Shown piece after piece: positions 5,082 to 25,745 of a DNA stretch of 34,427 nt; positions within the stretch are counted from its first letter, which is position 1; each line of letters starts with the position of its first letter. The stretch is from a virus (Duplodnaviria > Heunggongvirae > Uroviricota > Caudoviricetes). Position numbers and translations under genes: made by a program. The DNA is taken from IMG/VR virus record IMGVR_UViG_2718217885_000001, one strand, 5' to 3'. The notes under the pieces were generated by a model. It was not told the DNA's origin, did no database searches, and saw nothing but the letters and a program-made list of their open reading frames with translations.

Positions 5082-7904
5082 ATGACGGCAGAGTACATCA
5101 GGGACTGGCAACAACCGCGCCACGCAGTGGGACGTGAAGGAACGGGGATCCCCGTTCCTGAATCTGCGCTTTCCTCCTGGCTGGATGCCTACCGGGCAGA
5201 GAACGAGCGCCGCCAGGAAATGGCTGATGCGGCGTTCTCCGCCACGCCGCTGGGCAACCTGATTAATAAAAGCCTGGATGCACAGGAAAAACAGGACAAA
5301 ACCATCACACTGGCAGGAGACGCCAGAAAACAGGCACGCGGCGCGGTGGATGAAGCCATGGCCTCGCTGCGCCTGCTGCCGTCCTATCTGCGCGATCCGC
5401 TTATTCGCCACCTCTCCTTCCTGCGCAAAAAACAGGAAGTCGATCGCCGGAAAGGCAAAAAGAGCTGGCAGGCTGAACGCTACGCGCGCGGAACCCTGCG
5501 CAAAATATTCGAACGTCTGGACCGCACCGACCACCGCTGGCTGACACCGGGTTATCGCTCCCTTGCCGGACGCGAACGCCTGGATGATTTGCTTTACCTG
5601 CCGCAGCTCAACAAGCACCAGATACAGACGCTGGCCACCATGACGGCGGCGATGTTCAGCAGCACCTTCGAAAAACTCTGCGATGGCTTTGGCGCGACTG
5701 ATGGCGAACTGACCATGGATGTAACGCTGAAGGCGTATCAGATGCTGGCCCGCATGGCGTTACACCTGCACGCCATGCCTCCACATTATGACGCACTGAC
5801 AACAGACAAAGACCGGAGGAACGAACCGGACACGGAGCTGCTGCCGGGCGCAATCCTTCGCCTGACCTGTGCGGAATGGTGGAAACGCAAACTGTGGCTG
5901 TTACGTTGCGAGTGGAGAGAAGAACAACTCCGCGCCGCCTGTCTGGTTTCCAGAAAAACATCACCCTATCTGAGCCAGGACGCGTTAAGCGAGTTTCGCG
6001 CACAGCGCGAGAAAACACGCGATTTCCTGAAAAGTTTCATGCTGGAAAATGAAGACGGGTTCACGATTGATCTCGAGACAGTGTATTACGCGGGAGTAAG
6101 TAACCCGGTTCACCGTAAGGCAGAAATGATGGCCACCATGAAGGGACTGGAACTTCTGGCCGAAGCCCGTGGCGACAGAGCGGTGTTTCTGACTGTCACC
6201 TGCCCGTCAAAATACCACGCAACAACGGAGAACGGTCATCCGAACCCCAAATGGAACGGGGCCACCATGCGCGACTCCAGCGATTACCTGGTTAACACGT
6301 TTTTTGCGGCGGTCCGCAAAAAACTGAACCGCGACGGCCTGCGCTGGTATGGCATCCGCACGGTGGAGCCTCACCATGACGGAACCGTGCACTGGCATAT
6401 GATGGTCTTTGCCCATCCGGAAGAAATCGACACCATTGTGTCCCACACCCGCGATATTGCCATTCAGGAAGATCGTCACGAGCTGGGCGATGATATTACT
6501 CCGCGCTTTAAGGCGGAGTATGTAGACGGCTCAAAAGGCACGCCAACCAGCTACATCGCCACCTACATCGGAAAGAACCTGGACAGCCGCGCCGTGGATG
6601 GCATCGACCCGAAAACGGGCAAACCACGCGTTGACCACGAAACAGGAAAATCAATGGCCGAGAGCGTGGAGCGCGCCATCGGCTGGGCGCGCCTTCACCG
6701 GGTCCGCCAGTTCCAGTTCTTTGGCATTCCCTCCCGTCAGGTGTGGCGTGAACTCCGCCGCCTTGCCAGCCAGATGGCACGCAACCCGGAGGGCCCGCAA
6801 CGGCTGAAGGATGACGCAATGGATGCGGTTCTTGCTGCCGCTGATGCCGGGTGTTTTGCCACCTACATTGAAAAACAGGGTGGCGTACTTGTTCCGCGCA
6901 AGGACTACCTGATTCGCACAGCCTACGACCTCGCAGATGAGCTGAACGATTACGGCGAACAGAGTGTACAGATTTACGGGATCTGGTCGCCACTCATCGG
7001 GGAATCCTCCCGTGTGTGCACGCACCCGGATAACTGGAAGCTGGTAAGACGTAAACCGGAAGCGGAAGACAGCACCCACGAAAATGGTTTTGACCTTCAG
7101 GGCGGCCCTGCCGCCCCTTGGACTCGTGGCAATAACTGTCCCCGTGTACAGGAAACGGACAACAACGGGACAGAACAGCCGGAAGAACGGCCAGCACCGT
7201 GGCCGCAGCTCCCTGACGGCGTTGAAGTGAACGAATGGATGCGCTCACTGAAACGGCACGAACGCCGGGCGCTGATGCGTTCGCTTCGTGACAAACAGGC
7301 AAAAAACAGCAGTGATGAAATGCAGAGCTGGACACAGAGCCGCAAACAGCAGCGGCCTTTGCCTGATAACCACGAATTACTCGCTAAAGAATGGCGGGAG
7401 TCTGCTGAATCTCTCGGCCTGCATATCGGTGAACAACAGATGCAGCACCTGTTACGGGGCGGCAGTCTGTACGTTGACGGCAGCATCATTGCACCGCAGG
7501 GGTTTGAAATTGTACGCAAACCGGATACCCGCCCGGACAGCCGAATCACGCAGCTCTGGCAGCGCCTGAGCCGTAATCACGGCGTAAGCAGCACGGAGAT
7601 CCGCCATAACCCGGTCGCCAGCTATCTGGCGCAACTGGGGGCATCAGACCCTGAAGCCGCCGCACGCCTGGCATCCACACTTCAGCAGGACCAGAACACC
7701 ATGAAAACACCCGTTACCGTGCTTTCTGACATGCTGCGCGCCATCCGCGACACAGAGCACGCACAGAGAATCAGTGAAACCACTGAACGCGCCCGCCGCA
7801 AAGCAGACCTGCTGCGGGGTGGCCTGACCATTGGAAACAAAAAACAGACAGAAACGGGATTCACAAATCCCGTAAATGAGCAAAAAACGCGCCGCGATAT
7901 ATGA
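5082..7904 (+). CDS. A: Rolling-circle replication initiation endonuclease (P2 gpA-like, HUH superfamily), unusually long at 940 aa
   Basis: HUH-type motif GTVHWHMMVF and paired catalytic tyrosines YIATYIGKN (Y-x3-Y) as in P2 A / phiX174 A; canonical position after the small early genes. Confidence 0.85.
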   Translation: MTAEYIRDWQQPRHAVGREGTGIPVPESALSSWLDAYRAENERRQEMADAAFSATPLGNLINKSLDAQEKQDKTITLAGDARKQARGAVDEAMASLRLLPSYLRDPLIRHLSFLRKKQEVDRRKGKKSWQAERYARGTLRKIFERLDRTDHRWLTPGYRSLAGRERLDDLLYLPQLNKHQIQTLATMTAAMFSSTFEKLCDGFGATDGELTMDVTLKAYQMLARMALHLHAMPPHYDALTTDKDRRNEPDTELLPGAILRLTCAEWWKRKLWLLRCEWREEQLRAACLVSRKTSPYLSQDALSEFRAQREKTRDFLKSFMLENEDGFTIDLETVYYAGVSNPVHRKAEMMATMKGLELLAEARGDRAVFLTVTCPSKYHATTENGHPNPKWNGATMRDSSDYLVNTFFAAVRKKLNRDGLRWYGIRTVEPHHDGTVHWHMMVFAHPEEIDTIVSHTRDIAIQEDRHELGDDITPRFKAEYVDGSKGTPTSYIATYIGKNLDSRAVDGIDPKTGKPRVDHETGKSMAESVERAIGWARLHRVRQFQFFGIPSRQVWRELRRLASQMARNPEGPQRLKDDAMDAVLAAADAGCFATYIEKQGGVLVPRKDYLIRTAYDLADELNDYGEQSVQIYGIWSPLIGESSRVCTHPDNWKLVRRKPEAEDSTHENGFDLQGGPAAPWTRGNNCPRVQETDNNGTEQPEERPAPWPQLPDGVEVNEWMRSLKRHERRALMRSLRDKQAKNSSDEMQSWTQSRKQQRPLPDNHELLAKEWRESAESLGLHIGEQQMQHLLRGGSLYVDGSIIAPQGFEIVRKPDTRPDSRITQLWQRLSRNHGVSSTEIRHNPVASYLAQLGASDPEAAARLASTLQQDQNTMKTPVTVLSDMLRAIRDTEHAQRISETTERARRKADLLRGGLTIGNKKQTETGFTNPVNEQKTRRDI

Positions 7905-7946
7905 AGCGCGCATAAAACAGGCAAAAACGGGATTTCAGAATCCCGT
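7854..7946. repeat. Two copies of a 20-bp palindrome ACGGGATT-N4-AATCCCGT (7854-7873 and 7927-7946), 73 bp apart, upstream of the parM-like gene
   Basis: Read directly; both copies sit in an AAA-flanked context; first copy overlaps the 3' end of the gpA ORF; candidate centromere/operator. Confidence 0.55.
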
Positions 7947-7980
7947 AAACGATTAATTAATCAACATAAGGAAAAGCGAC

Positions 7981-8940
7981 ATGAAAATTTGTATCGATGA
8001 CGGCTCCACCAACATCAAGCTGGCATGGACTGAGAACGGCGAACGCCGCAACGCCATCAGCCCGAACAGCTTCAAGTCGGAATGGTCTGCGCCGTTCGGT
8101 GGCACGCAGCCCGCGAACTACATGCTTGATGGCGTGCGCTATGGTTTTGATCCGGTCAGCGATCGCTTTGTCCAGACGACCGACACGCAATACCAGTACA
8201 GCGATGTGAATGTCATTGCCATTCATCACGCGCTGGTCAAATCAGGCATCACACCACAGGAAGTGGATGTGGTTGTCACCCTGCCACTGAGCGAATATTT
8301 CGACACAAACGCACAGCCGGACATGGCCAACATCAACCGCAAAAAAGCAAACGTCATGCGCCCGGTGGCGTACCAGAACGGAAAAGCATTCACTATCCGT
8401 AACGTACGGGTTATGCCTGAATCCATTCCGGCTGGTTTTAAAGCACTGGCTGACATGAGTCCGTTTGAATCCCTGCTGATTGTGGATTTAGGCGGAACCA
8501 CGCTGGATGTGGCAAAGGTTCAGGGACAACTGGCAGGTATCAGCCAGGTGTTTTGCGATCCACACGTAGGCGTTTCCCTGATGGCCGATGCCGTACTGTC
8601 GGTGATGGCCACTAACGGTATGCGTACCAGTCACCACATCGCCAATACCATTATCGAACATCGCCATGATGAAGCCTGGCTGCGCCAGCACATCCACAAT
8701 GACGCGCATTACGCCAGCCTGATGGCGGTTATTCGTGAAAAGGAAGAAACACTGAAACAACGCGTGATCCGCGCGCTGGCGGGTTTTTCGGGTTACGGGC
8801 GGGTGATGGTTGTCGGTGGCGGGGCGGAGATTGTGGCACCCGCTATCCGCGAAGCCTGCGGAGTTAATGCGACTTTCATCGCGGACGGGGTGCCACAGTT
8901 TGCTCTGGTTAATGGGCTGTACGCAATGGACAAGGAGTAA
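7981..8940 (+). CDS. parM: Actin-like ATPase of the ParM/StbA family (type II plasmid-partition NTPase homologue)
   Basis: 319 aa; recalled similarity to plasmid R1 ParM across the length (IDDGSTNIKL, ISPNSFK, YSDVNVIAIHHAL, VMPESIPAGF, LLIVDLGGTTLD, VGVSLM, VMVVGGGAEI, LVNGLY); aaggaaaag RBS. Confidence 0.8.
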   Translation: MKICIDDGSTNIKLAWTENGERRNAISPNSFKSEWSAPFGGTQPANYMLDGVRYGFDPVSDRFVQTTDTQYQYSDVNVIAIHHALVKSGITPQEVDVVVTLPLSEYFDTNAQPDMANINRKKANVMRPVAYQNGKAFTIRNVRVMPESIPAGFKALADMSPFESLLIVDLGGTTLDVAKVQGQLAGISQVFCDPHVGVSLMADAVLSVMATNGMRTSHHIANTIIEHRHDEAWLRQHIHNDAHYASLMAVIREKEETLKQRVIRALAGFSGYGRVMVVGGGAEIVAPAIREACGVNATFIADGVPQFALVNGLYAMDKE

Positions 8941-8944
8941 ACCA

Positions 8945-9256
8945 ATGACGACACCAACCAGACGAATAAGTTTCTATCTGAAGCCCGCCGCCGTCAAGAA
9001 CGAAGGCGAAGCATGCGCCTGGCTGGACAGCCTTACACCAGAAGCCCGCAAAAGCGGCCAACGTGTGGCTTTTCTGGCCGGGCTGGCACTTCTGAAAATG
9101 AATCCGGCAGAGGCTTACCGACTGGCTGCATGGGCTGATGATGAAGCGTTATCAGTGACACAAACCAGGACAGAACGCCCCGCATCACAGCCAGTATCAA
9201 CCGCACAGATAACCAGTCAGATGGCCGGAAATATCCGGGCGTTATTTCCCGAATAA
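8945..9256 (+). CDS. parR: ParR/StbB-like small DNA-binding adaptor (103 aa)
   Basis: ATG at 8945 with aaggag RBS 9 nt upstream, 4 nt after the parM-like stop; recalled weak similarity to R1 ParR (YLKPAAV, FLAGLAL, RALFPE); classic parM-parR order. Confidence 0.55.
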   Translation: MTTPTRRISFYLKPAAVKNEGEACAWLDSLTPEARKSGQRVAFLAGLALLKMNPAEAYRLAAWADDEALSVTQTRTERPASQPVSTAQITSQMAGNIRALFPE

Positions 9257-9261
9257 TACAA

Positions 9262-9285
9262 CATCAGGGCGCATCCGCCCTGATG
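9262..9285 (+). terminator. Intergenic hairpin between the parR-like and ClpX-ZBD-like genes (possible weak terminator or processing site)
   Basis: catcagggcg-catc-cgccctgatg, 10-bp perfect stem; no strong T-tract. Confidence 0.35.
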
Positions 9286-9319
9286 ACTTTAATCCGGGAA
9301 CACAAACAAAGGGGACACA

Positions 9320-9652
9320 ATGCAACACATTGACAGAGAAAAAGCGCAGCGACTGATTGAGCGGATGGAAGCGCTGGCGAAAGAAGAAAATGTCAACATC
9401 CAAAAAATAGCTGAATGTGGCCAGATAGTTCTTCGTCGTGAAAAAAACCTCAAACAACTGATGTCTGGCGAAACCAGCAAAACATGGACTTCAGGCGAGA
9501 AGACGGTTTATTGCAGTTTCTGCAATAAATCCCAGTACGAAGTCACAAAGGTGATTGCCGGACCGTCTGTTTACATCTGCAATGAATGCGTGGATTTGTG
9601 CAATGAAATTATCAGGAAAGAAGTGACAGACAAAAAGGAAAAAAACGCATGA
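9320..9652 (+). CDS. Small protein with a C-terminal ClpX-type N-terminal zinc-binding domain (C4 zinc ribbon); no AAA+ module
   Basis: 110 aa; C-terminal half [41 protein letters not shown] closely resembles the ClpX N-terminus ([39 protein letters not shown]); aggggac RBS; AT-richer than neighbours. Confidence 0.75.
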
Positions 9653-10056
9653 ACAGAAAACAGAAACAAGAGTTGAAATACTTCTTACGTAAAGAAATTG
9701 CCAGGCTTGAAGATGCAGAGTCACAATCATCAGAAATTCCGTTCGGAATGGATATCAACGACGCCCGTATGCTTCAGGCATACCGTATAGCTCAGGCTGC
9801 ACTACAGACAAAACCGTTAAATAACATACATGAAAAGTATGATTATTTTACGGATACCGCTTGCTTGCTGACATCAGAAGAACAAAAGATAGCCCAACTT
9901 TTAGGCGACGCATGGAACCTGTATTTAACATTGCCAGTTGAGCATCCAATGGGTAGAGATGAATTTTGCCGGGCAATTCATCATTGCCAAAATATGGTGT
10001 TGGCACGCCCGGCCATCAGGGCGTTGGCCAGGAAGGGGCAAGGCTATAAAAGATAA
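9649..10056 (+). CDS. Hypothetical protein (135 aa), translationally coupled to the ClpX-ZBD-like gene
   Basis: ATGA start/stop overlap; no motif recognised; AT-rich composition. Confidence 0.5.
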
Positions 10057-10061
10057 GTAAA

Positions 10062-10087
10062 ACGCCCTCCTCCAGGGCGTTTATTTC
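10062..10087 (+). terminator. Rho-independent terminator closing the accessory cassette
   Basis: acgccct-cctcc-agggcgt stem-loop followed by TTTATTT. Confidence 0.7.
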
Positions 10088-10089
10088 AA

Positions 10090-10116
10090 TGCACAATAGT
10101 GCACAAATTTGCACAA
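10090..10116. repeat. Three direct TGCACAA repeats at exact 10-bp phasing
   Basis: tgcacaatagtgcacaaatttgcacaattttttt read directly; lies in the noncoding region between the accessory cassette and the portal gene, where P2 has cos. Confidence 0.5.
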
Positions 10117-10480
10117 TTTTTTTGAACGACTTTTTACCCTTCCGGCCCGCATGGCGGCTGGATCCGTCAAGGATCCGTGCGTGCACAAAAAAACGCGCTT
10201 TTTCTGCGCGCAGGTGACGGGGGAACAGCCCGCGTTTCAGGGGGTAAATAGCGTTCCCTTAACGATGTCGCAGCGACACGACAGAATGGCCGTATTTCTC
10301 ACGCTGAGCGTGAAAAATACGTGAGGGATTCTGATTTGATGGGGTGAAAGGTAAGGCCGTCAAAATCGCACTGAGGCGGCGAGAACATGCAGTCAACGCG
10401 GTGGGATTGCGTAAGAGTCTGACCGTCGATGGTGGCGATAAACTGGAAGGCGTCGTGAAATTATCTGACTGATACAGGAG

Positions 10481-10505
10481 CTGGAGAGTCGGGGCATAAA
10501 TTTTT
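10481..10505 (-). terminator. Palindromic hairpin downstream of the portal gene (putative terminator of the leftward Q-P transcript)
   Basis: cggggcataaa-ttt-tttatgccccg perfect palindrome 36 nt past the Q stop; no classic T-tract. Confidence 0.45.
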
Positions 10506-10540
10506 TATGCCCCGGCGAAGCAGCAGACAAGCGAAGCGCG

Positions 10541-11587
10541 TCAGGATGTGGGCTGGATGTCTAACAGTGCGTAAGGGTTAAAGCGGATCACCTCTTCGCC
10601 AAGCCAGTCATTGATGTGCTTCATGGCCTCCATGACGGGCATCAGCTCGTTAATTGCGTAAACTCGCGCGGCCTTCTCCACATCACCAAACGCACTTTTT
10701 TCACCCGGCATCGCCCCCATCAGTTGCGGCGGAACGCGGTGCGCAGCCAGCACATCATCACGGGATGCCGCCTTAACATTCATGAACTCATCCTTTGCGG
10801 TGATCTGCTGGAACGGCAAAATTTGCACCCCCTCTTTGCCCCCGTTGGGCGCATGAATGAGCACGTTTTTAAACGCACCACCACCACGCGCACCCTGTAG
10901 CGTTTCTTTCAGGGAGTCCATGCTTTCGCGGTTTACCTGCGCTGCACCGATGTAGATGATGCACCCGGCGTGGGATCCGTTGTCGTAATACAGTTTTCTG
11001 AACATGTCCGCCGAATGAGACAGGCTGGCCGAGAGTAATGCGCCGAGATATTCCGGCATGCCGTAGATTTCCTGGTTAATGTCAGGATTCATCAGGTGAC
11101 ACACTTTGCCTGGGCGAAACTGAAACGCATCCTTGCCATCCTGCACATACCACCATGATTCAAGATCGCTTCCGCGTCGCATGTATTTCGCCAGGGCGTG
11201 CCGTAATTTAAGCGGTTCGCCGAGCATATTGCTTCGAAGCTCAAGGAATGCGTTACCGAACACAAACCAGTCCAGCGCCAGCGCCGAGAAATCCTGCCGG
11301 GAAAGCAGCGGGTGCGGGATGTAGCAACCGAGCAATACATTGCGCTTAAAGTAAAGCGCAGACTGATGCCAGGACGTTTGCCGGGCAGCTCTTGCCAGAC
11401 CGTACCAGTCCACCGGGGTTTCATACCACCGCCCGTTATCAGCACAGTACATATTGTCCAGCAGGTCATGCCCGGTCAGGCGATAAGGACCATCAAATGT
11501 GAATGCACTGAGCGATGATTCTTTCCTGAGCGCATCAGCGAGATCAATGCGTGAACTCATGCGCACTTTTTTATTTTTTCTGCTCAT
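10541..11587 (-). CDS. Q: Portal protein (P2 gpQ-like)
   Basis: 348 aa; size, position and orientation match P2 Q; start overlaps the terminase stop. Confidence 0.85.
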   Translation of the reverse strand: MSRKNKKVRMSSRIDLADALRKESSLSAFTFDGPYRLTGHDLLDNMYCADNGRWYETPVDWYGLARAARQTSWHQSALYFKRNVLLGCYIPHPLLSRQDFSALALDWFVFGNAFLELRSNMLGEPLKLRHALAKYMRRGSDLESWWYVQDGKDAFQFRPGKVCHLMNPDINQEIYGMPEYLGALLSASLSHSADMFRKLYYDNGSHAGCIIYIGAAQVNRESMDSLKETLQGARGGGAFKNVLIHAPNGGKEGVQILPFQQITAKDEFMNVKAASRDDVLAAHRVPPQLMGAMPGEKSAFGDVEKAARVYAINELMPVMEAMKHINDWLGEEVIRFNPYALLDIQPTS

Positions 11588-21435: not shown

Positions 21436-22036
21436 TTCACTGTTACCACCATCAGCCAGCAATTTCATGCGTTGTGCCGAAGCCGTCGGAACACGCATTA
21501 CAGACATTCCGGTAGACCTCAACACGCTGTGGTCGCCGGACACCTGCCCGGCGCATCTGCTGCCTTATCTCGCCTGGGCGTTTTCCGTTGACCGCTGGGA
21601 TCGCAACTGGCCGGAAGAGACAAAGCGACAGGTGATTCGTGATGCATGGCTGATACACCGACACAAAGGGACCATCAGCGCACTGCGAAGAGCCGTGGAG
21701 CCTCTCGGCTACCTGATTGAAGTAAAGGAGTGGTGGCAACTCAACGAGGAGCCAGGAACATTTCGCATTGTTGTCGGAGTACTTGATCAGGGCATCACCG
21801 ATGAAATGTATCAGGAACTTGAGCGCCTTATTGCGGATGCAAAACCAGTAAGTCGCCATCTGACAGGGCTGGCGATCAGTCTGAGTGTGAACGGAAAGAT
21901 TTTCGTTGGTACGGGATGCTATCACGGCGATGCCCTGACGGTTTATCCCTACACCCCGGAGTCCATTATTGTCGAAGGGGATTATTTCCCTGCCCCGGCC
22001 ATTCATTTAATTGATAATCTGAGAGTAAACGCATGA
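21428..22036 (+). CDS. I: Baseplate assembly protein I
   Basis: ATG at 21428 overlapping the J stop; position before the tail fiber gene. Confidence 0.75.
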   Translation: MSNSLLPPSASNFMRCAEAVGTRITDIPVDLNTLWSPDTCPAHLLPYLAWAFSVDRWDRNWPEETKRQVIRDAWLIHRHKGTISALRRAVEPLGYLIEVKEWWQLNEEPGTFRIVVGVLDQGITDEMYQELERLIADAKPVSRHLTGLAISLSVNGKIFVGTGCYHGDALTVYPYTPESIIVEGDYFPAPAIHLIDNLRVNA

Positions 22037-23538
22037 CAGTGAAATACTACGCCATTCTGACTAATCAGGGCGCGGCACGACTGGCTAACGCGACGATGCT
22101 CGGCAGTAAGCTGAATCTGACGCAAATGGCCGTTGGTGATGCAAATGGTGTGTTACCAACACCAGACCCTGCACAAACAAAACTGATTAACCAGAAACGC
22201 ATTGCACCGCTGAATCTTCTGAGTGTTGACCCGAACAACCAGAACCAGATTATTGCGGAGCAAATCATCCCTGAGAACGAGGGCGGATTCTGGATACGTG
22301 AGATTGGGCTTTATGATGATGAAGGCGTACTCATTGCGGTGGCGAACTGCCCGGAAACGTACAAACCGCAGTTGCAGGAAGGCAGTGGTCGTACCCAGAC
22401 TATCCGCATGATTCTGGTTGTCACGAATACCGAAGCTATCACGCTGAAAATCGACCCGTCTGTGGTTCTGGCAACCCGCAAATATGTGGATGACAAAATC
22501 TCAGAGCACGAACAGTCACGACGCCACCCGGACGCCTCGCTGACCGCAAAAGGTTTCACTCAGTTAAGCAGTGCAATTAACAGTGAATCAGAAACACTGG
22601 CCGCAACACCGAAAGCGGTTAAGGCTGCATATGACCTGGCTAGCGGGAAATATACCGCCCAGAATGCCACCACAACACAAAAAGGGATTGTTCAGCTCAG
22701 TAGCGCCACGAACAGCACGTCTGAAACACTGGCAGCGACACCAAAAGCCGTTAAGGTGGTAATGGATGAAACAAACAAGAAAGCCCCATTAAACAGCCCG
22801 GCACTGACCGGAACGCCAACAACGCCAACAGCGCCACAGGGGACTAATAATACTCAGATCGCAAGCACGGCTTATGTTATGGCCGCGATTGCCGCGCTTG
22901 TAGACTCGTCACCTGACGCACTGAACACGCTGAACGAGCTGGCGGCGGCGCTGGGTAACGACCCGAATTTTGCGACAACCATGACTAACGCGCTTGCGGG
23001 TAAGCAACCGAAGGATGCTACCCTGACGGCGCTGGCAGGACTTGCTACAGCAGCAGATAAACTCCCTTATTTTACAGGTGCAGATCGCGCCGCGTTAACC
23101 GCACTGACAAGTGTTGGACGTGCCATTCTTAGTAAGCCCAGCACGCAGGGGGTTCTTGATTACCTTGGTTTGGGAGAAGCGGCAAAACGGGAGGTGGGGA
23201 CAGGGGAAAATCAGATACCGGACATGGCTTCTTTTGCCAGTGGTGATGGATGGATGAAATTACCCAACGGGAAAATCCTGCAATATGGTCGAGGTGCGGT
23301 TACGCCAACATTATCGACGCAAACAATGAGAATTACATTCAGCATCCCTTTTCCTAAAAAAGTGGACTGCGCCATGCTTACCCATTCTGGTGATGGTGGT
23401 GCGCCTTTAGGCGCTGGACGGGGATTCGTGATGACTGCAGAAGGTCCAACACTAACCGGTTTTAATTCCGCTTACAGAACTGCATCAACCAGCTCCACAG
23501 TATCGATGAATTACAGTTGGTGGGCTGTTGGTGAGTAA
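22033..23538 (+). CDS. H: Tail fiber protein (P2 gpH-like): constant N-terminal part plus currently expressed variable C-terminal part
   Basis: ATGA overlap with I; internal near-repeats SETLAATPKAVKAAYDLA / SETLAATPKAVKVVMDE typical of fibers; hix-like crossover site inside the gene at 23153-23178. Confidence 0.85.
   Translation: MTVKYYAILTNQGAARLANATMLGSKLNLTQMAVGDANGVLPTPDPAQTKLINQKRIAPLNLLSVDPNNQNQIIAEQIIPENEGGFWIREIGLYDDEGVLIAVANCPETYKPQLQEGSGRTQTIRMILVVTNTEAITLKIDPSVVLATRKYVDDKISEHEQSRRHPDASLTAKGFTQLSSAINSESETLAATPKAVKAAYDLASGKYTAQNATTTQKGIVQLSSATNSTSETLAATPKAVKVVMDETNKKAPLNSPALTGTPTTPTAPQGTNNTQIASTAYVMAAIAALVDSSPDALNTLNELAAALGNDPNFATTMTNALAGKQPKDATLTALAGLATAADKLPYFTGADRAALTALTSVGRAILSKPSTQGVLDYLGLGEAAKREVGTGENQIPDMASFASGDGWMKLPNGKILQYGRGAVTPTLSTQTMRITFSIPFPKKVDCAMLTHSGDGGAPLGAGRGFVMTAEGPTLTGFNSAYRTASTSSTVSMNYSWWAVGE
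23153..23178. promoter_or_regulatory. Left recombination site of the invertible tail-fiber segment (hix/gix-like, 26 bp)
   Basis: ttcttgattacc|ttggtttgggagaa; inner 14 bp is a perfect inverted repeat of 25044-25057; half-sites fit TTnTCnnAAACC. Confidence 0.75.
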
Positions 23539-23558
23539 TTTTATTCAGGGTGATTTAT

Positions 23559-24002
23559 ATGAACGAATATGTTTATAGCGCAAGGCATAATGCTTTTTTC
23601 CCTGTGGATATGATTGATAAATATAAATCAGAGGGATGGGATTTATCAGATGCAAAGGAGGTGAATCAAAATATTATCAGTGAGTTTATGGCTGAACCGC
23701 CACAAGGAAAAATCCGTATTGCCGGAGATGATGGGCTGCCTGCGTGGGCAGATATTCCTCTACCCACGCATGAAGAGCTTATTGAAATTACTGAATCAGA
23801 AAGACAGCTACTAATTAACCAGGCCAACGAATACATGAACAGTAAGCAATGGCCCGGTAAAGCCGCTATTGGTCGTCTGAAAGGTGAGGAACTGGCGCAA
23901 TATAATTTGTGGCTGGATTATCTGGATGCACTGGAGCTGGTTGATACCTCCAGTGCACCAGATATTGAATGGCCTACGCCTCCAGCAGTACAGGCCAGAT
24001 GA
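23559..24002 (+). CDS. G: Tail fiber assembly chaperone (gpG/Tfa-like), expressed orientation
   Basis: ATG at 23559 with aggg RBS; immediately downstream of H. Confidence 0.75.
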   Translation: MNEYVYSARHNAFFPVDMIDKYKSEGWDLSDAKEVNQNIISEFMAEPPQGKIRIAGDDGLPAWADIPLPTHEELIEITESERQLLINQANEYMNSKQWPGKAAIGRLKGEELAQYNLWLDYLDALELVDTSSAPDIEWPTPPAVQAR

Positions 24003-24576
24003 CCTCCGGCGCGGTGCTGGTATCTGTTGCCGTCACCGCGTCAATGTAATCCAGCACGGCGTTAAGTCGGGTTGTTTCTGCCTGCGTCAACTTCCGTCCG
24101 GCCTGCAATTTCAGTTGAATCAGACTGATGGAGGCCATCGCAGCATCAATCAGTGACTGGCGCTGTGCTTCTGCTGCTTCTACTGCGGCGTTATGCTGTG
24201 CCTCAGTATCTGTCACCCATTTCTCACCATCCCATTTATCGTATAGCGTTAACGGGGCGATAGTGGTTGTATTTTCAGGGTAATTACCCGGCACCGTGAT
24301 TTCTTTTGCTTCTCCTGTTTCGGTGCTATAGATAATTTCACCGCGATGGTCTGGCATATATTCCCATGAGTTTAAATCTACTGAACGGCAGATTGCATAA
24401 CCAGCCTTATATGTGCCAGGAGCATCTAAACAGGAATATGCCGGGATACCGACACCAACAGCAAGATATTCATTTGAAGTGGAAATATATTCCCGTGTTT
24501 CACCATCATAGTTATAGACGGTAATATTCCCCGCCTTCGTGGCAATAAGTTCGCTATTTAATACGGCTTTATCCAT
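23974..24576 (-). CDS. Alternative tail fiber assembly chaperone (Tfa'), silent orientation
   Basis: 200-aa ORF convergent with G and overlapping its 3' end; directly downstream of the alternative fiber C-terminal exon. Confidence 0.7.
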   Translation of the reverse strand: MDKAVLNSELIATKAGNITVYNYDGETREYISTSNEYLAVGVGIPAYSCLDAPGTYKAGYAICRSVDLNSWEYMPDHRGEIIYSTETGEAKEITVPGNYPENTTTIAPLTLYDKWDGEKWVTDTEAQHNAAVEAAEAQRQSLIDAAMASISLIQLKLQAGRKLTQAETTRLNAVLDYIDAVTATDTSTAPEVIWPVLLEA

Positions 24577-25097
24577 TATGCAGCTCTCACGATATAGTTA
24601 AATGCAATATTTCGTGGACGGGTTTCGCTCCCACCTGTGTTACCAATACTCCCTCGTGTATGTAGCGTTGGTGATGGAATCAGAGTTCCTCCGACATCGG
24701 CAGCATCAAGCCCCCGGCCTTGCGTATATGCTCTTCTGAAGATTGTCGCCAGTTCCCATTCCTCTTTTGAATCATACCCATCGTTGGCAACAACAATATG
24801 GCGGTGCTTCTCCAGCATCCCAGTCTGAATGCTCAATAAAGCACGTCCAGCATCAACGCCTCGTCCGTCATCCCAGCCACGAATAAACTCACCACGGAGA
24901 TCAGGTAGTTTCCCTGATGGATATGCTGTAGCAAGATGGGGATATTTAACCTTATCAAAGGCGGCGCCATTGCATTTCAACCAGCCTGTCGGCAAAGTGG
25001 CTGAAGGCCATGGAACAGGCACACCAACGGGTAATGCAGAGCCTTCTCCCAAACCAACGTTTGTGAAAATGCAGAGATAACGGGTAACTGGCATCAT
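24576..25097 (-). CDS. Alternative tail-fiber variable C-terminal exon (Hv'), promoterless in the current orientation
   Basis: Minus-strand ORF whose 5' end carries the right hix-like site; shares the junction peptide GLGE with H. Confidence 0.7.
   Translation of the reverse strand: MMPVTRYLCIFTNVGLGEGSALPVGVPVPWPSATLPTGWLKCNGAAFDKVKYPHLATAYPSGKLPDLRGEFIRGWDDGRGVDAGRALLSIQTGMLEKHRHIVVANDGYDSKEEWELATIFRRAYTQGRGLDAADVGGTLIPSPTLHTRGSIGNTGGSETRPRNIAFNYIVRAA
25044..25069. promoter_or_regulatory. Right recombination site of the invertible segment (hix/gix-like, 26 bp)
   Basis: ttctcccaaaccaa|cgtttgtgaaaa; inverted partner of 23153-23178. Confidence 0.75.
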
Positions 25098-25124
25098 CTC
25101 CGGTTTTTATTCAGGGGGATGCTC

Positions 25125-25715
25125 ATGCTTATTGGTTATGTTCGCGTATCAACAAATGACCAGAACACGGAATTGCAGCGTAACGCGCTGGAGTGCGCAG
25201 GATGTGAACTGATTTTTGAAGATAAAATCAGCGGAACGAAATCAGCCAGACCGGGATTGAAAAAACTGCTCAGAACGCTATCAGAAGGAGATACGCTGGT
25301 TGTCTGGAAGCTGGACAGGCTGGGCAGGAGTATGAAACACCTGATCACGCTTATTGAGGAATTGCGGGAAAAAGGTGTTAATTTCCGTAGCCTGACGGAC
25401 AGCATTGACACATCAACACCCATGGGGCGTTTCTTTTTTCACGTCATGGGAGCTTTAGCAGAAATGGAACGTGAATTAATTGTAGAGCGTACACTGGCCG
25501 GGCTGGCAGCAGCACGAGCACAGGGACGCATTGGCGGACGTCGCCCGAAGTTGACAAAAGAACAACATGAGCAAATAGAAAGGCTGATTAAAAACGGCCA
25601 TGACAGGAAACAACTGGCGATCATTTACGACATCGGTATATCGACGATTTATCGTTATCACCCTGTAGGCGATATACAGGCTGAAGAAACAACCGGGCAG
25701 ACTCAGGGAAAATAA
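25125..25715 (+). CDS. Serine DNA invertase of the Gin/Pin/Cin/Hin family
   Basis: N-terminus MLIGYVRVSTNDQNTELQRNAL with catalytic Ser, plus VVWKLDRLGRSMKHL and GRFFFHVMGALAEMERELI, nearly matching recalled Mu Gin; abuts the invertible segment. Confidence 0.9.
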   Translation: MLIGYVRVSTNDQNTELQRNALECAGCELIFEDKISGTKSARPGLKKLLRTLSEGDTLVVWKLDRLGRSMKHLITLIEELREKGVNFRSLTDSIDTSTPMGRFFFHVMGALAEMERELIVERTLAGLAAARAQGRIGGRRPKLTKEQHEQIERLIKNGHDRKQLAIIYDIGISTIYRYHPVGDIQAEETTGQTQGK

Positions 25716-25716
25716 A

Positions 25717-25745
25717 AAACCGCTAATCTGACCATTAGCGGTTTT
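25717..25745. terminator. Bidirectional intrinsic terminator between the convergent invertase and gpU genes
   Basis: aaaaccgctaat-ctgacc-attagcggtttt: 12-bp stem flanked by an A-run and a T-run. Confidence 0.7.

Follow-up and report, generated by a model that had tools for sequence, protein, structure and literature searches.

A 34,427-nucleotide stretch of viral DNA (Caudoviricetes; IMG/VR record IMGVR_UViG_2718217885_000001), referred to here as the window, carries a parM gene and a parR gene that are preceded by two copies of a repeated site, the putative centromere parC. This cassette is near certainly a bona fide homologue of the type II plasmid partition systems (ParMRC, R1/StbAB-like). 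A first-pass annotation of the window had proposed a parM-parR cassette of the R1 kind, preceded by repeated sites, within a P2-family prophage that carries an integrase, and the analysis reported here supports that assignment. The cassette probably represents a core module of the early/replication region of P88-like (Xuanwuvirus) peduoviruses that acts on a transient extrachromosomal circle of the phage. Purifying selection, intact motifs and conserved sites, all read from sequence comparisons, point to a working, selected system of ParM, ParR and site.

The partition genes and their upstream sites

The cassette consists of the following elements, in order along the window.

7838–7879, plus strand: putative parC unit 1, a 42-nt direct-repeat unit around palindrome 1, within the last gpA codons
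7854–7873: palindrome 1, ACGGGATTcacaAATCCCGT = ACGGGATT-caca-AATCCCGT, perfect, 8-N4-8
7911–7952, plus strand: putative parC unit 2, the second copy of the 42-nt direct repeat, around palindrome 2
7927–7946: palindrome 2, ACGGGATTtcagAATCCCGT = ACGGGATT-tcag-AATCCCGT, perfect, 34 nt 5' of the parM ATG
7981–8940, plus strand: parM, encoding a 319-aa actin-like segregation ATPase, with an AAGGA ribosome-binding site 5' of it
8945–9256, plus strand: parR, encoding a 103-aa predicted centromere-binding adaptor, starting 4 nt past the parM stop

The 319-aa ParM homologue of the first-pass annotation was confirmed by its domain matches (Pfam StbA_N, 6.9e-82; ParM C-terminal domain, 1.3e-68) and by a full-length match (residues 2–316, E = 1.6e-92) to the R1 ParM structures 1MWK and 4A62. 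The motifs IDDGSTNIK, MPESIPAG, DLGGTTLD and GGGAE align with R1 ParM, and the phosphate-1, E148-region, phosphate-2 and adenosine motifs, by which nucleotide binding and catalysis were judged, are all aligned. Comparison with a diverged Hafnia-type relative (dS = 0.64) gave a ratio of nonsynonymous to synonymous divergence (dN/dS) of 0.04 for parM, and comparison with two E. coli variants gave 0.06–0.08, whereas the parR N-terminal domain gave 0.15–0.25, with dS reaching 0.64–0.96 in these comparisons. The low parM ratios (0.04–0.08) indicate that this gene is maintained by selection.

The 103-aa ORF located four nucleotides past parM was likewise verified as ParR-like, as it belongs to Pfam family Plasmid_stab_B (1.6e-24) and to PHROG 2515. 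When a profile of 23 phage ParRs was compared with the PDB, the best match was the ParR of pB171 (StbB, 2JD3; E = 0.005), which covers the ribbon-helix-helix (RHH) domain (residues 8–73 against 10–74), and over its N-terminal 61 aa the ParR of the window shares 33% identity with IncFII StbB, an R1-type ParR. The N-terminal strand PTRRISFYLKP and the helices that follow it are invariant or almost so among the phage ParRs, and residues ~64–90, corresponding to the linker, are hypervariable. The C-terminal tail NI(R/Q)xLFPE is conserved in the phage clade, with NI..FP invariant in the 23 phage ParRs, and aligns with the K-N-x-x-x-L-(I/F) of R1-type, IncFIA and IncL/M ParRs. In the R1 system ParR docks on ParM via its C-terminal tail, as seen in the ParM–ParR peptide structure (4A62). 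The alignments suggest that the phage ParR is organized as expected, with a DNA-binding domain joined by a flexible linker to a putative ParM-docking tail.

ParR alleles that are ~52% identical overall (L007 2501–2815 against window 8945–9256) lie behind 97%-identical parM genes and identical palindromes, which implies recombination inside the cassette. These divergent alleles differ mainly in the linker and the second half of the protein, and their DNA-contact strand and tail are the same. Co-variation of ParR specificity with its site was considered and set aside, since neither the contact strand nor the palindrome cores show any variation, a pattern that is compatible with such a relation but does not discriminate for or against it.

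The paired palindromes noticed earlier were recovered with the spacing originally given, 73 bp from start to start. The first-pass annotation had not mentioned that palindrome 1 overlaps the gpA ORF (5082–7904), falling within its 3' end; the sequence encoding the C-terminus of gpA doubles as putative parC unit 1. The palindromes form the cores of the two 42-nt units, which are 81% identical to each other. With up to three mismatches allowed, these two sites are the only matches to the palindrome in the window, where 0.12 would be expected. Irrespective of sequence, perfect 8-N4-8 palindromes occur six times in the window, compared with 0.61 in Markov resamples; among these six, only the pair upstream of parM has a sequence in common. 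Other perfect palindromes of this form were seen inside gpA, at 5139 and 6302.

Conservation is concentrated in the palindrome cores. In the diverged Hafnia-type locus (L095), the GGGATT-N4-AATCCC cores of both palindromes are kept at 12 of 12 positions, whereas changes have accumulated in the spacers, in the outer bases and over much of the stretch that separates the two units. For palindrome 2 the same pattern holds over 88 loci, with a constant core and a variable spacer (TCAG, TAAA or TGAA) and variable outer bases. AAAC motifs were also observed in and around both units (7839–7954), with their C at 7845, 7855, 7888, 7918, 7928 and 7950; their spacings of 10, 33, 30, 10 and 22 nt, judged by eye and without statistics, correspond to a helical phase of ~10–11 bp. 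This phasing recalls the 11-bp iterons of R1 parC, and the region bound by protein may be wider than the palindromes.

An Rfam scan of positions 7600–10600 gave no match, so the palindromes correspond to no known RNA element. A function of the palindromes as terminators was rejected, as they are terminator-like on the minus strand alone, where there is nothing to terminate, and on the plus strand they are not followed by a T-run. Minus-strand terminators are already present below the portal gene Q, at 10193–10211 and 10060–10082.

Placement, distribution and transcriptional context

The window is 100% identical to a chromosomal prophage of E. coli GB089, which belongs to the P88-like (Xuanwuvirus) lineage of the P2 family and is integrated beside pheA/pheL. 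The gene order of this prophage runs from the integrase and the repressor through a rightward early operon that ends in gpA-parM-parR, followed by cargo genes; past the cargo, the portal gene Q and the terminase gene P lie on the opposite strand. Two features border the cassette.

5082–7904, plus strand: gpA, replication endonuclease of 940 aa, lying outside the cassette as context, its 3' end overlapping parC unit 1
9262–9285, no strand assigned: hairpin with a perfect 10-bp GC-rich stem (−26 kcal/mol, z = −6.3), directly after the parR stop

The gpA of P2 is presumably ~761 aa long, in which case the gpA of this lineage would be substantially longer.

The first-pass annotation had placed the cassette in the slot in which P2 carries the anti-phage genes tin and old, and this placement needs correction. 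The cassette is linked to its gpA type: parMR was found in 1331 records, against 1386 that have this gpA type at ≥90% identity, an accompaniment of ~96%. Homology with P88-like phages that bear other cargo ends at query positions 1450–1483, which correspond to 9249–9282 of the window, and the hairpin at 9262–9285 is likely to be both a terminator, or transcription-unit end, and the recombination boundary of the hotspot. Beyond it the loci vary, with a distance from parR to the portal gene that ranges from ~1.0 kb to >2.7 kb among 76 IMG/VR loci. The Hafnia-type relative has parMR without cargo, and its parR lies ~0.5 kb from the portal gene. Because it is tied to the gpA type and variation starts beyond the hairpin, the cassette is a core module of the lineage that borders a tin/old-type hotspot, and not hotspot cargo. 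It displays neither the swappable presence nor the similarity to defence genes by which gpA–Q hotspot cargo was recognized.

About one complete E. coli genome in four (1330 of 5426) has the cassette, in 1480 places overall, 1478 of them chromosomal. The ParR clade is narrow, with 84 clusters that are nearly all from Escherichia. Among the 72,556 records of PLSDB, the phage-type ParR occurs in seven, mostly very large replicons or partial contigs, and ParM proteins with at most 52% identity to the phage ParM occur in more than 5000 PLSDB plasmids. One phage-sized circle was found among the PLSDB matches, NZ_CP148288.1 (L002), a 34,461-bp circular E. coli 'plasmid' record of strain Z1323PEC0009, from a cat. 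This record comprises an entire P88-like genome, in which integrase, Cox, repressor, gpA and parMR are all present, without any host DNA; it represents either an excised replicating circle that was assembled separately or a genuine episomal prophage. A search of genome contigs for related loci returned only three near-identical loci. A locus with a 97%-identical ParM (L005) was also observed on a 226-kb contig labelled Vagococcus sp. (NZ_JBQPOM010000071.1), a Gram-positive genus; this is almost certainly a contaminated or mislabelled enterobacterial contig.

The existence of the cassette is already known. Both genes are named in RefSeq and GenBank, PHROGs 691 and 2515 are families of 'partition protein', and Rousset et al. 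(2022) reported that about a fourth of P2-like phages have a putative partition system, perhaps allowing maintenance as a plasmid (PMC9122126).

All genes from ~1.4 kb through gpA, parM and parR are encoded on one strand. In the interval between gpA and parM, a promoter scan, which was a crude consensus test, found no sigma-70 consensus promoter, and no plus-strand terminator was found. Inspection by eye gave two weak promoter candidates, TTTCAG-17-ATTAAT over palindrome 2 and ATGAGC-16-TATATG between the units, neither of which we claim as a promoter. As far as sequence features can tell, the co-orientation, the lack of a detected promoter or terminator before parM and the hairpin after parR would fit expression as part of the early programme, a stage at which the phage genome is extrachromosomal, short of proof, and parM and parR would be co-transcribed with gpA from the early promoter.

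The actual variable cargo of this prophage was observed at 9320–10056. Its first ORF encodes a 110-aa protein that is essentially a ClpX-type C4 zinc finger (Pfam zf-C4_ClpX, 2.6e-18; PHROG 6797, function unknown), and the stop of this ORF overlaps the start of a 135-aa ORF without a family. Neither protein matched a PADLOC model. On its own, a ClpX N-domain might serve as a decoy to which ClpX adaptors or substrates are drawn; in that event the two ORFs would together be a candidate moron or defence system. At a distance from the cassette, in the tail-fibre region (~22030–25720; L001 34234–37916), a fibre gene annotated as truncated lies together with opposed tail-fibre assembly genes and an invertase-like gene of the recombinase family. 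This combination hints at host-range switching by inversion of the segment, as in Mu and P1.

Relation to characterized partition systems

The parMRC locus of R1/R100 (stbA-stbB-parC) and the loci of other IncF and of IncL/M plasmids have the same order as the phage cassette, sites-parM-parR, with the repeated sites immediately 5' of parM. The ParM proteins of these plasmids are 46–52% identical to the phage ParM over the full length and have the same ATPase motifs, and their ParR proteins share the Pfam family of the phage ParR and are homologous to it in the N-terminal domain and the C-terminal tail. The surroundings differ: the R1-type locus resides on a theta-replicating plasmid, whereas the phage cassette lies in an integrated tailed prophage beside a rolling-circle replication gene. 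The sites differ as well. R1-type parC consists of two clusters of 11-bp CA-rich direct iterons that flank a clear promoter, and the IncFIA and IncL/M loci have T-rich direct repeats, whereas the phage has two palindrome-centred 42-bp units. Unlike the R1 type, the phage ParR clade is nearly absent from plasmids. The par2 locus of pB171, whose ParR (2JD3) is the top PDB match of the phage profile over the RHH domain, is nevertheless distant.

Two systems from elements that are normally integrated provide functional comparisons. In the SXT/R391 integrative and conjugative elements (ICEs), the srpMRC locus stabilizes the circle that exists transiently after excision, and its expression is confined to the excision/transfer programme (Carraro et al. 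2015, PMC4489591). As a type II partition locus in a normally integrated element, it is the closest functional analogy to the phage cassette, although it resides in an ICE instead of a phage and its SrpM and SrpR are distant from the R1 proteins ParM and ParR; the phage ParM, by contrast, is close to that of R1. In CGP3, an integrated prophage of Corynebacterium glutamicum, the AlpAC system ties phage DNA circles to actin-like filaments, and efficient replication depends on it (Donovan et al. 2015, PMC4446434). Like the phage cassette, AlpAC/alpS pairs a prophage-borne actin-like protein with an adaptor; the CGP3 adaptor binds its own upstream sites, and the alp genes are induced early after excision. 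AlpAC differs in belonging to another actin-like family, in its actinobacterial host, in its reversed gene order (alpA then alpC) and in an adaptor that is unrelated to the phage ParR.

The same cassette, at 95–98% DNA identity, is present in the nearest phages, Escherichia phage P88, PhiR44_2, Xuanwuvirus P884B11 and Citrobacter phage phiSM, with no substantive difference, and the records of these phages already label the genes as ParM or partition protein.

Probable role in the phage life cycle

Because the phage lives integrated, the substrate of the cassette is most likely an extrachromosomal circle of phage DNA. The role that we infer would be exerted after infection, before integration takes place, and again after excision, during replication driven by gpA. 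ParR probably binds at the palindromes, with ParR dimers contacting the two 42-bp units (cores GGGATT-N4-AATCC) via the N-terminal RHH domain. The C-terminal tail of ParR (NIRALFPE) would then capture the growing ends of ATP-ParM filaments, and these filaments would push the ParR-bound DNA molecules apart. In this manner the module would spread or position phage circles to daughter cells or to sites of replication or packaging, and it would not serve the long-term upkeep of a plasmid prophage. By analogy, a role resembling those of srpMRC in SXT/R391 and AlpAC in CGP3 appears to be the best reading.

Several points weigh against this account. ParMRC systems suit low-copy replicons, and lytic rolling-circle replication gives many copies. 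The putative parC has two inverted-repeat units only, against the direct 11-bp iterons of R1, and two palindromic sites could be a simple operator. A weak autoregulated promoter within parC may lead to expression in lysogens. The AlphaFold2 model of the ParR monomer has a low confidence (pLDDT 56) and an unfolded N-terminus, so the RHH fold is assigned here by sequence homology; the RHH fold needs the dimer. Finally, our search of the literature on ParM or ParMRC in P2-like phages, P88, Xuanwuvirus and phage-plasmids found no experimental study of this cassette.

A bolder interpretation, which is possible but doubtful, is that P88-like peduoviruses use an R1-type ParMRC for an undescribed stage of life, either facultative carriage as a low-copy plasmid, a hidden phage-plasmid state, or an actin-driven spacing of monomeric circles. 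P2-type phages replicate and package monomeric circles. In either case it would be the first type II segrosome known to function in an integrating phage of a Gram-negative host.

It is unlikely that the cassette is regulatory or residual, with the palindromes acting as the operator at which ParR represses its own genes or through which the end of the early operon is regulated, and ParM and ParR being a hitch-hiking remnant of recombination with a plasmid that brings no segregation benefit. Such a view would account for the presence of two sites only, fewer than in characterized centromeres, and for their palindromic form, which is that of classical operators; ParR proteins, including that of R1, are known autorepressors. 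However, parM evolves at a dN/dS of 0.04–0.08 and its catalytic motifs are intact across lineages that have diverged up to a dS of 0.64. In addition, the putative ParM-binding tail of ParR is conserved, the cassette is retained at ~96% in the lineage, and ParM would be superfluous for a mere operator.

We consider it improbable that the phage is a facultative phage-plasmid, in which the prophage persists for many generations as a low-copy plasmid, for instance in cells whose attB is missing or already taken. The idea was voiced by Rousset et al. (PMC9122126), and it would be consistent with the circular P88-like record NZ_CP148288.1 and with a partition module that is complete and selected. 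However, 1478 of the 1480 places in E. coli are chromosomal, and the ParR type is found in just 7 of 72,556 PLSDB records, among which is the one phage-sized circle, which could itself be an excised replicating phage that was assembled separately. No plasmid-type replication initiator is annotated in the phage, which has an integrase and an attachment site next to pheA, and replication depends on gpA, a gene of the early operon. From P2 biology, early-operon gpA should be repressed in the lysogen. By its location, the phage is neither a normally autonomous plasmid of the P1, N15 or SSU5 kind nor an example of the low-copy extrachromosomal carriage that is associated with type II ParMRC. The plasmid-like lifestyle that the first-pass annotation had envisaged is unsupported in its regular form. 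The unusual dual integrative and plasmid-like lifestyle that it raised has already been published, as a speculation of one line on about a fourth of P2-like phages (PMC9122126). Partition has experimental precedents in integrating elements (PMC4489591, PMC4446434).

An exclusion or defence function, also raised at first pass, in which the prophage ParR or ParM disturbs incoming phages or plasmids through, for example, partition incompatibility or mis-positioning of DNA, much as the hotspot genes tin and old act in P2, is highly unlikely: the cassette adjoins the gpA–Q defence hotspot of Rousset et al. and its ParR alleles and linkers are strikingly variable, recombining onto near-identical parM genes, but it matches none of 5027 PADLOC models, its presence tracks the phage lineage without hotspot-like turnover, its ParR DNA-contact strand and palindrome cores are invariant, unlike an arms race at a DNA-recognition interface, and plasmid ParRs (≤ ~33% identity) and iteron-type parC sites are too different for cross-reaction.

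To a cassette that had already been named, our analysis adds its placement as a core module, the strong selection acting on it and a distribution that argues against a regular plasmid lifestyle. If the cassette acts on the phage circle, plasmid-type actin segregation would be a routine part of the life cycle of a common temperate phage, and the line between prophages, ICEs and plasmids would blur further.

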